Shown here: one piece after another, positions 11,320-12,611 of the stretch | Numbering within the stretch: position 1 is the stretch's first letter | Layout of the letters: each line of letters opens with the position of its first letter | Origin: Aotus nancymaae | Taxonomy: Eukaryota | NCBI RefSeq assembly: GCF_030222135.1 | Contig: NW_026988420.1 | Coordinates: 6,579,875-6,643,874, forward strand | DNA length: 64,000 nucleotides | Direction: 5' to 3' | The notes under the pieces: model-generated | Told to the model about the DNA's origin: nothing | The model's database searches: none | Seen by the model: only the letters and a program-made list of their open reading frames with translations | Program-made: the position numbers and the translations under genes

Positions 11320-12611
11320 TTTTTTTTTTTTTTTTTTTGAACTGATGAATTCTGGTGATATTTTATTTAGAAGAAGATAATCACTTATTTTAACATTTTA
11401 ATTTTTCTTTCTTTTAAATGCCACACTAATTAGACATAAGTAGTATTGGATAATAAAAGTATTTACACATTGAATACAAAATAAATATAAAATAACTGAA
11501 AAAAAATCAGGTTTTCATTGACTTATTTTGTTTTCCCTCTGTCTATTCTCTGTTTCATTTTTCTTTGCCTTTTATAAATCCGTTTCTTTCGTGCTTTCAA
11601 ATCAACTTTTGGCTCTGGGTTTACCCACTGTATTTCTATTGGTTTCTCCTCAGCTGGCCTAACGAAAACATCTGCAGTGGGATCGTGTGGAAGAAGAGTC
11701 TTCAGTTCTTTCTTTCTCAGTTTCTGCACATCTTTCACTTGCTGTTTCTCTTTGTATTTTGCAGCTGTGATGGATCTTATGACACGCCGATGCATGTCTG
11801 GTGACTGGTAGTGAGGGTTTTCATATAAAGTTGTCCTCCAAAACTTCCCTGGAAAATCTTTATGAGATTTAAGACAAAACGAGGTCCTATTTCTACAAGA
11901 GCAGCATCTTCTTCTATAATCTGAAACTTCCGAAACCATATCCTATTATCCAAAATGGTGAAAGTAAACACATGGTCCACGAATGGTTGGCTTTTGGGAT
12001 GATACCATGGTGTACTAAAGATCTGAATTAAGAATTCTTTTAACAAAGCATAATGTGGTAATTCATCAAAAGCCAGGTCAAAAGACAAAAGGAGCCGAGA
12101 ACCTTTCAAACAGTTTCCAGTCATCTTTAGTTCAGCAAGGGTATGAATATTTTGAACTAGGAATTTAGCAGATGGTCCATGAGGTGAATCTGAAAGCCAC
12201 ATGTAGAGTTCCTGTTTTTTCTTAGCTTCAAAATAGATGCATTTATTACAGTTTTTCATTTCACAAACCTTGTTAATCACAAATAGCTTATCCTTACGAT
12301 CCATTTTAGTATCTGCTTTAGAATGAGGCATCAACCTTCTCAAGTCCTGCATTAAATGTCTTGTTCTGAAATTTATTCCTCTGGAAGAAAAGATGAGAAT
12401 CCGTTCCTTATTTTTCCACTTGCCCTTGCAAACGGGGCCCGGGATCCGGTTTCTCTCTTCCTCCACCTCCTCTGCAGTGGCGCGAGACTTAGCTGGCGGC
12501 TCGGCATCTCTTTCGTTTCTTTTTGGCTTCTTCGCCTGAACTGCTAAGCCTCCACGTTTCCTCTTGGTTGCCGCCATCTTGTCTCGCCGCCATCTTGTCT
12601 CGCTGCGAGCC
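11320..12611 (-). pseudogene. Processed pseudogene (retrocopy) of BRIX1 (ribosome biogenesis protein BRX1 homolog), inserted antisense in a PARP4 intron. It is intronless, has a poly(A) tail (poly-T 11320-11338 on +) and a TSD actttgttgattc (11307-11319 and 12612-12624). The ORF is broken once by a 1-bp deletion near 11950. The 16-nt motif gagacaagatggcggc occurs twice in tandem (5'UTR plus first codons, spanning the start ATG).
   Basis: Minus ORFs 11777..12613 (...MAATKRKRGGLAVQAKKPKRNE...KGKWKNKERILIFSSRGINFRTRHLMQDL...) and 11523..11939 (...TTLYENPHYQSPDMHRRVIRSITAAKYKEKQQVKDVQKLRKKE...KMKQRIDRGKTK) are consecutive BRIX1 segments in different frames. Revcomp AATAAA ~25 nt before the A-tail. 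Confidence 0.85.

Follow-up and report, generated by a model that had tools for sequence, protein, structure and literature searches.

The window, i. e. the whole stretch of 64 kb that was analysed, carries in an intron of PARP4 a copy of BRIX1 that extends on the minus strand from position 12611 to position 11320. This copy is intronless: in alignments to the BRIX1 genes of Piliocolobus and Callithrix, all 10 BRIX1 exons are contiguous, and as compared to the GT-AG-spliced marmoset and colobus mRNAs the nine exon junctions are gapless, with every intron precisely lost. The parental genes were those of Piliocolobus tephrosceles (L001), Callithrix jacchus (L002) and Propithecus coquereli (L009), and their exons were set by GT-AG boundaries and by exact translation to the annotated proteins. 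The frame of the retrocopy matches vertebrate proteins annotated as "ribosome biogenesis protein BRX1 homolog" with a best E-value of 1.7e-149; at E-values of about 1e-149, a chance resemblance to BRIX1 is impossible. The individual features are listed in Table 1.

Table 1. The BRIX1 retrocopy, its immediate surroundings and the neighbouring PARP4 exon (window coordinates; TSD, target site duplication)
Feature	Position	Strand	Evidence and remarks
Antisense Alu, a neighbour and not part of the retrocopy	10959..11278	-	own 14-nt TSD ACATTTCATTATTT at 10945-10958 and 11280-11293
TSD copy at the poly(A) side	11307..11321		ACTTTGTTGATTCTT, 15 nt; 15/15 identical to 12612-12626
Poly(A) tail, 19 A (T19 on the + strand)	11320..11338	-	repeat finding: period 1, 19 copies
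BRIX1 3' UTR copy	11339..11522	-	96.6% identity to marmoset; aligned to the last exon of marmoset and colobus
BRIX1 CDS copy, exons 1-10 without introns	11523..12577	-	a 1-bp deletion disables it; exon 1 has two 3-nt deletions that keep the frame
Exact 16-nt tandem duplication, CGAGACAAGATGGCGG x2	12570..12601	-	doubles the start ATG and the CAAGATGGCGGC motif
Short 5' UTR copy including the extra repeat unit	12578..12611	-	parental homology stops ~22 nt upstream of the ATG
TSD copy at the 5' end of the retrocopy	12612..12626		followed by AATAG on the + strand; nick site TTCTT/AATA
Branch-point-like motif TTACTCAC	12700..12707	+	motif match alone; A 29 nt upstream of the exon; pre-existing intron sequence
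PARP4 coding exon, 46 codons (RTDCKAVIST...EKESE), intact	12735..12872	+	tblastn; acceptor ttttacag/C (AG), GT donor

Anatomy of the retrocopy

The initial annotation had described a processed BRIX1 pseudogene with a 19-nt A-tail and a 13-bp TSD, and intron loss, tail and TSD were all reproduced upon realignment. The A19 tail begins 23 nt downstream of an AATAAA hexamer (first base at 11367, minus strand), directly after ...CATCAGTT; past this point the parental genomic sequence runs on as AATTTCTG, and the retrocopy has the tail instead. The TSD counts 15 nt if the final two T, which are ambiguous with the tail, are included, and 13 nt are unambiguous; L1-mediated processed pseudogenes have TSDs of about 7-20 bp. 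Endonucleases of LINE-1 elements (L1) nick at a TTTT/AA-like consensus, and the plus-strand site TTCTT/AATA deviates from it by one mismatch. At the other end, no parental promoter sequence was found when the marmoset, colobus and sifaka genes were compared: the retrocopy has no similarity to them upstream of ...CGCAG. In colobus and marmoset, RAD1 is located head-to-head with BRIX1 (L001 and L002, positions 1 to ~2130), with ~870 bp between the coding starts. This arrangement indicates a bidirectional parental promoter, of which the retrocopy contains nothing.

The host intron and its empty counterpart

The host intron extends from position 7904 to position 12734 of the window, and the retrocopy is antisense to PARP4. 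Searches by tblastn with the lemur, camel and dingo PARP4 proteins revealed 16 open PARP4 exon blocks on the plus strand between 6799 and 48478, the last of which encodes the C-terminus of the protein. These proteins, from Lemur catta, Camelus ferus and Canis lupus dingo according to their source names, had been retrieved by searching exhaustively with HMMER for matches to the neighbouring exon, and the lemur protein has the architecture BRCT+PARP+VIT+VWA. The mapping of this exon with the three proteins bears out the earlier placement of the retrocopy in antisense orientation about 110 nt upstream of it: the insertion point lies 108-123 nt upstream of the exon at 12735, and counted to the first exon base the end of the TSD is 109 nt and the last base of the retrocopy 124 nt away. 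Searches beyond these proteins yielded little: in a word-indexed protein search, the 46-amino acid exon matched just two metagenome fragments and a 486-amino acid multi-exon query gave only distant or partial matches, and a conserved 26-mer from the exon had no match in a scan of metagenome contigs. A scan of the whole window against Rfam returned no RNA family at the gathering threshold.

The PARP4 gene of Lemur catta (L010) is syntenic to the window up to position 10950 and then again from exactly 12612, with ~20 nt in between. The lemur intron reads ...GCATTTCATAACTTTGTAATTTATTACT-ACATTATTGATTCTT-AATAGAG... (L010 ~42860-42895) and contains one target copy each for the retrocopy and for the adjacent Alu element, thus both insertions are absent from it. 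The metagenome-derived mammalian contigs L006 and L007 contain the empty site as well, with a single target copy and TTTTT/AATA at the nick; the contigs L003 to L008 come from non-primate mammals (77-89% identity). It is worth mentioning that the TSD of the Alu element lies 13 nt from that of the retrocopy, so that the two insertions mark a T-rich/AA stretch as a small hotspot of insertion. The locus is a clean example of a LINE-1 retrocopy: it is full-length, it has a perfect TSD, and the outgroup site is empty.

These observations also bear on the idea that an assembly artefact or a contaminating cDNA has been mistaken for a genomic insertion. An intronless sequence ending in poly(A) is what a cDNA would look like, and this likeness is not specific. 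The flanking TSD, however, has a single-copy ortholog at the syntenic position of the lemur intron, and the retrocopy has diverged from any functional BRIX1 by a frameshift and by replacements at invariant residues (see below). We therefore regard an artefact as practically excluded.

Source of the copied mRNA

In an alignment of the coding sequences of four taxa, 13 sites group the retrocopy with marmoset as derived relative to colobus and sifaka. There is one conflicting site in favour of a grouping of retrocopy and colobus, and none for the other alternative. In agreement with this, the retrocopy is 96.75% identical to the marmoset BRIX1 mRNA as compared to 94.99% for colobus. The same signal is visible in the proteins: the retrocopy and the BRX1 proteins of Aotus and Callithrix have several derived residues in common, i. 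e. the R in DLRRLMPH, the L in KKELK, the R in MDRGKTK, the N in EERNRIPG and the sequence PRATAEE, and the BRX1 proteins of colobus, snub-nosed monkey, sifaka and fox have other states at these residues. The shared derived sites and the higher identity to marmoset identify the source mRNA as platyrrhine, and the window consequently as DNA of a New World monkey. The presence or absence of the insertion could serve as a phylogenetic marker within the platyrrhines.

This result is at variance with the human context in which the locus had been placed by the initial annotation (comparison to NM_018321 and to the human pangenome): with 13 derived coding sites shared with marmoset and a single conflict, the retrocopy does not derive from a human or another catarrhine BRIX1 mRNA, and the human comparisons proposed there would address the wrong species. 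A recent and possibly polymorphic insertion in human PARP4 could have accounted for the perfect TSD, the pure A19 tail and the long open frame, but it is incompatible with the platyrrhine-derived substitutions and with the ranking of marmoset before colobus. Together with the number of changes private to the retrocopy, which implies an age of millions of years, this leaves such an insertion with a negligible probability.

One change that appeared private to the retrocopy, P170L (at a CpG), is also present in the BRX1 protein of Aotus nancymaae. This may reflect homoplasy, or it may point weakly to the owl monkey lineage. As the parental genes compared were those of marmoset, colobus and sifaka, some of the changes that seem to be specific for the retrocopy, in principle even the 16-nt duplication, could already have been present in the source mRNA.

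Reading frame, age and constraint

Two open reading frames, one of 278 codons (11777-12613) and one of 138 codons (11523-11939), jointly spell out BRX1. The initial annotation had noted that the N-terminal 278 codons including the Brix domain are still open. The open reading frame is indeed present, and it contains a complete Pfam Brix domain in frame (E=3e-44), but it opens at a GTG (12613-12611) that overlaps the TSD and the first base of the retrocopy. Counted from the authentic ATG (12577-12575), the open frame measures 266 codons, 248 of which follow the BRIX1 frame. The two frames are separated by a single 1-bp deletion at ~11833/11834 (GGAGGA-CAACTT versus the parental GGAGGACCAACT), and this frameshift at codon 249 leaves 248 of 353 residues in frame. 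The deletion, which had been reported as the only one in the coding sequence, is real and is the sole frameshift; the two 3-nt deletions as well as 34 substitutions in the coding sequence had been overlooked. How much does the open N-terminal part tell us? Of the random substitutions that could hit the first 254 codons, about 4.8% would introduce a stop codon; at ~14 changes, the frame would survive by chance in roughly half of such copies. The open frame of the retrocopy alone thus shows nothing; it is evidence neither of youth nor of function.

The branch leading to the retrocopy carries 23 private substitutions in ~1230 nt, and 20 of them are located in the coding sequence. By parsimony, the latter comprise 13 non-synonymous and 7 synonymous changes, as compared to 2 and 10, respectively, on the branch of the marmoset gene. 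This corresponds to a dN/dS of ~0.5 for the retrocopy and 0.05 for the marmoset gene (both from small counts), so that purifying selection is not seen on the retrocopy branch. Eight replacements (E103K, D123E, N130D, P162L, L182F, N217K, N261D and T307R, numbered on the conceptual protein of the retrocopy) affect positions at which a set of 119 vertebrate BRX1 proteins is invariant to at least 95%. Moreover, three of the 26 ancestral CpGs were lost by transition on this branch, at a non-CpG divergence of 1.68%, and this CpG decay is as expected of methylated neutral DNA. Finally, an exact look-up in a collection of 15 billion proteins retrieved neither an open reading frame of the retrocopy nor one that spans its junction. 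The BRIX1 retrocopy is evolving without constraint, since non-synonymous changes outnumber synonymous ones, near-invariant sites have been replaced, the frame is shifted and the CpGs decay.

The retrocopy lineage has changed by ~1.7-1.9%, and its non-synonymous sites have diverged by ~1.5%. If neutral DNA is assumed to change at 1-2 x 10^-9 per site and year, the small number of substitutions would correspond to a pseudogene phase of roughly 10 My (plausibly between ~5 and 17 My). The retrocopy thus appears to be younger than the platyrrhine crown, yet far from recent. The earlier conclusion that it is young has to be revised accordingly: an identity of 96.75% to marmoset and 23 private substitutions speak for millions of years rather than for a recent or polymorphic insertion.

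A tandem duplication at the start codon

The start codon of the retrocopy is doubled as part of the exact 16-nt duplication. The repeat finder reported it as GCCGCCATCTTGTCTC x2.1 at 12570-12603 with 100% identity. The initial annotation had proposed that the duplication is not found in the parent, and indeed the unit is present in a single copy in the BRIX1 genes of marmoset, colobus and sifaka. Its second claim, that the duplication creates an upstream ATG, also holds: the extra ATG is present at 12593-12591 and opens a frame of ~34 codons, and since it is located 16 nt upstream of the authentic ATG, it is out of frame.

The retrocopy reads CAG-[unit]-[unit]-CAACC, and the marmoset parent CAG-GCGG-[unit]-CAACC. 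Relative to marmoset, the retrocopy would therefore have gained 12 nt by an insertion, or it would have undergone a 16-nt duplication together with the loss of 4 nt. Simple replication slippage does not account for the whole event: starting from a marmoset-like 5' UTR, it would have kept the extra GCGG, which is absent from the copy. It is possible that the duplication arose by slippage after the insertion, by a jump of the reverse transcriptase, or that it reflects a different 5' UTR of the source.

The duplicated unit includes the 12-mer CAAGATGGCGGC, which is of the YY1 consensus type (JASPAR matrix MA0095). This motif is present once in all three parental genes (marmoset, colobus and sifaka), where it overlaps the ATG. 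The retrocopy contains two exact matches; the 64 kb hold no others, and chance would predict 0.10. YY1 sites just downstream of the transcription start are known from the 5' UTR of LINE-1 and from many housekeeping genes whose 5' UTRs are short. The position of the motif near the transcription start fits the very short parental 5' UTR and hence the near-full-length copy; and since the motif lies within the transcript, it was inherited by the retrocopy. The locus resembles YY1-type promoters in that the parental BRIX1 start codon lies inside the conserved motif that was copied into the retrocopy; it differs from them in that the motif of the retrocopy, a predicted YY1 site, is doubled and cut off from the bidirectional BRIX1/RAD1 promoter. 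The YY1 motif's over-representation just downstream of human transcription start sites is stated in PMC8384218, in a passage that cites Xi et al. 2007.

It is tempting to speculate that the doubled motif and the open Brix frame make the retrocopy a transcribed retrogene or an antisense promoter, which would give rise to a truncated Brix protein or to a regulatory antisense RNA within PARP4. The two exact matches to the motif, the over-representation of this motif downstream of human transcription starts and the full Brix domain in frame are compatible with this idea. However, a protein would be truncated by the frameshift at codon 249, scanning ribosomes would be diverted by the out-of-frame upstream ATG, and the eight near-invariant residues have been replaced. 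Moreover, the excess of non-synonymous changes (13 versus 7) and the CpG decay as for methylated DNA argue against a function, the parental promoter was not copied, and no matching protein is present among the 15 billion. We therefore consider a transcribed retrogene or promoter to be very improbable.

Possible effects on PARP4

According to the initial annotation, the likely branch point is located between the retrocopy and the exon at 12735, and the insertion may affect the splicing of this exon. A branch-point-like sequence is indeed present there, as judged from the match to the motif. The insertion lies ~80 nt upstream of it; the motif is intact, and so are the polypyrimidine tract, the acceptor and the exon. 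Both an effect on splicing and the termination of antisense transcripts at the poly(A) signal of the retrocopy, which the initial annotation also proposed, are conjectural.

An antisense retrocopy might nevertheless perturb the processing of the PARP4 pre-mRNA by providing cryptic 3' splice sites or signals for polyadenylation; in combination with a nearby consensus 5' splice site, these could result in a cryptic exon, in truncated transcripts or in a weaker use of the exon at 12735. The sequence offers some material for this: in the sense orientation, the copy contains four polypyrimidine-AG motifs (11652, 11719, 11763 and 12476) and two AATAAA hexamers (11452 and 11480), and a perfect CAG/GTAAGT is located at 12664-12672 on the plus strand, between the copy and the exon. 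The acquisition of exons from antisense retrocopies by host genes has been documented, even though it is rare and limited to a handful of cases (PMC2584115). The recruited antisense intronic retrocopies described by Baertsch et al. share the antisense intronic position and the sense splice-site-like motifs with the locus studied here; the difference is that the sole candidate exon that we could build contains stop codons. This hypothetical cryptic exon of 189 nt (12478-12666) holds four of them, and it could therefore only yield transcripts bound for nonsense-mediated decay. Moreover, the distance from the insertion to the downstream acceptor exceeds 100 nt, the splice elements are intact, all 16 downstream PARP4 exon blocks are open, and the insertion has been kept for millions of years. 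The open exons and the long persistence suggest that the insertion is tolerated, and we judge an effect on PARP4 processing to be unlikely. As to the consensus 5' splice-site motif at 12664-12672, the lemur has CAGGAAGT at this position, and contig L006 is devoid of the whole segment.

Little weight can be given to a combination of these ideas, in which the copy, ~110 nt away from a PARP4 exon, would be turned by the duplicated YY1 motif into a small autonomous antisense promoter, or would provide cryptic splice sites. The odds are strongly against this scenario; if it were true, the isoform output of PARP4 would be modulated in one lineage of New World monkeys.

Origin of the retrocopy

Taken together, our data are best explained by an L1-mediated processed BRIX1 pseudogene that was formed in the platyrrhine germ line and that has since been drifting as a dead copy (probability about 0.93), and none of the results speaks against this explanation. 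The retrocopy has the structure of a processed pseudogene, it derives from a platyrrhine BRIX1 mRNA, the orthologous site is empty in the lemur, and constraint is absent; from these observations, we infer LINE-1 as the agent, the age given above and the lack of a function. The following scenario can be proposed: a spliced and polyadenylated BRIX1 mRNA would have been reverse-transcribed by the LINE-1 machinery in an ancestor of the New World monkeys, and the product would have been inserted at the TTCTT/AATA nick in the PARP4 intron 7904-12734. The 3' end of the plus strand at the nick would have been primed on the poly(A) tail. Such priming accounts for the orientation of the copy antisense to PARP4 and for the order on the plus strand, i. 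e. TSD, T19, antisense cDNA and TSD. Target-primed reverse transcription by LINE-1 is known to result in this order and in this kind of nick site. The copied part of the mRNA would have begun ~20 nt upstream of the ATG and ended at the normal cleavage site, with the promoter left behind. After the insertion, it would have acquired the frameshift, the two in-frame deletions and the replacements of invariant residues, and its CpGs would have decayed. The 16-nt duplication may have arisen during or after retrotransposition.

All of this is in good agreement with LINE-1 processed pseudogenes of mammalian housekeeping genes. They are characterized by the same loss of introns, by a poly(A) at the cleavage site, by TSDs of 13-15 nt and by the T-rich/AA nick; likewise, they are promoterless copies with an empty outgroup site that accumulate disabling mutations and drift neutrally, and we see no essential difference between them and the locus studied here. 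As particular features, the BRIX1 retrocopy has a 5' end that is nearly full-length and a perfect 16-nt duplication across the ATG, and it lies ~110 nt from an exon of the host gene. The search of the literature for a processed pseudogene or retrocopy of BRIX1 found no link. The BRIX1 retrocopy is thus a routine L1-mediated processed pseudogene, a fresh instance of a thoroughly known kind, and its significance beyond annotation is small.

Other features of the window

Several other features were observed in the window. On the minus strand between 60645 and 63678, there are four long open reading frames in different frames with domains of the N4BP2/N4BP2L2 type: DUF7818, DUF7816 and DUF1771 are present in one of them, and DUF7817 in another. 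This sequence, located ~12 kb beyond the last PARP4 exon, is intronless and frame-broken and probably represents another processed pseudogene. An intact LINE-1 ORF1p frame of 337 codons with trimerization, RBD-like and dsRBD-like domains is located at 1903-2916 on the minus strand. It probably sits in another PARP4 intron, with no PARP4 exon mapped upstream of 6799. On the plus strand, an open frame of 396 codons (34851-36041) covers a large and poorly conserved PARP4 exon, whose identity to camel and lemur amounts to just 34-41% over 35442-35933, as compared to 57-94% for the flanking exons. This low conservation fits a rapidly evolving linker region of PARP4. Downstream of PARP4 (54024-54600 and 55816-56207), the window contains a tandem Alu-like pair with a period of 300 and a cluster of GC-rich minisatellites of 30-90 nt.
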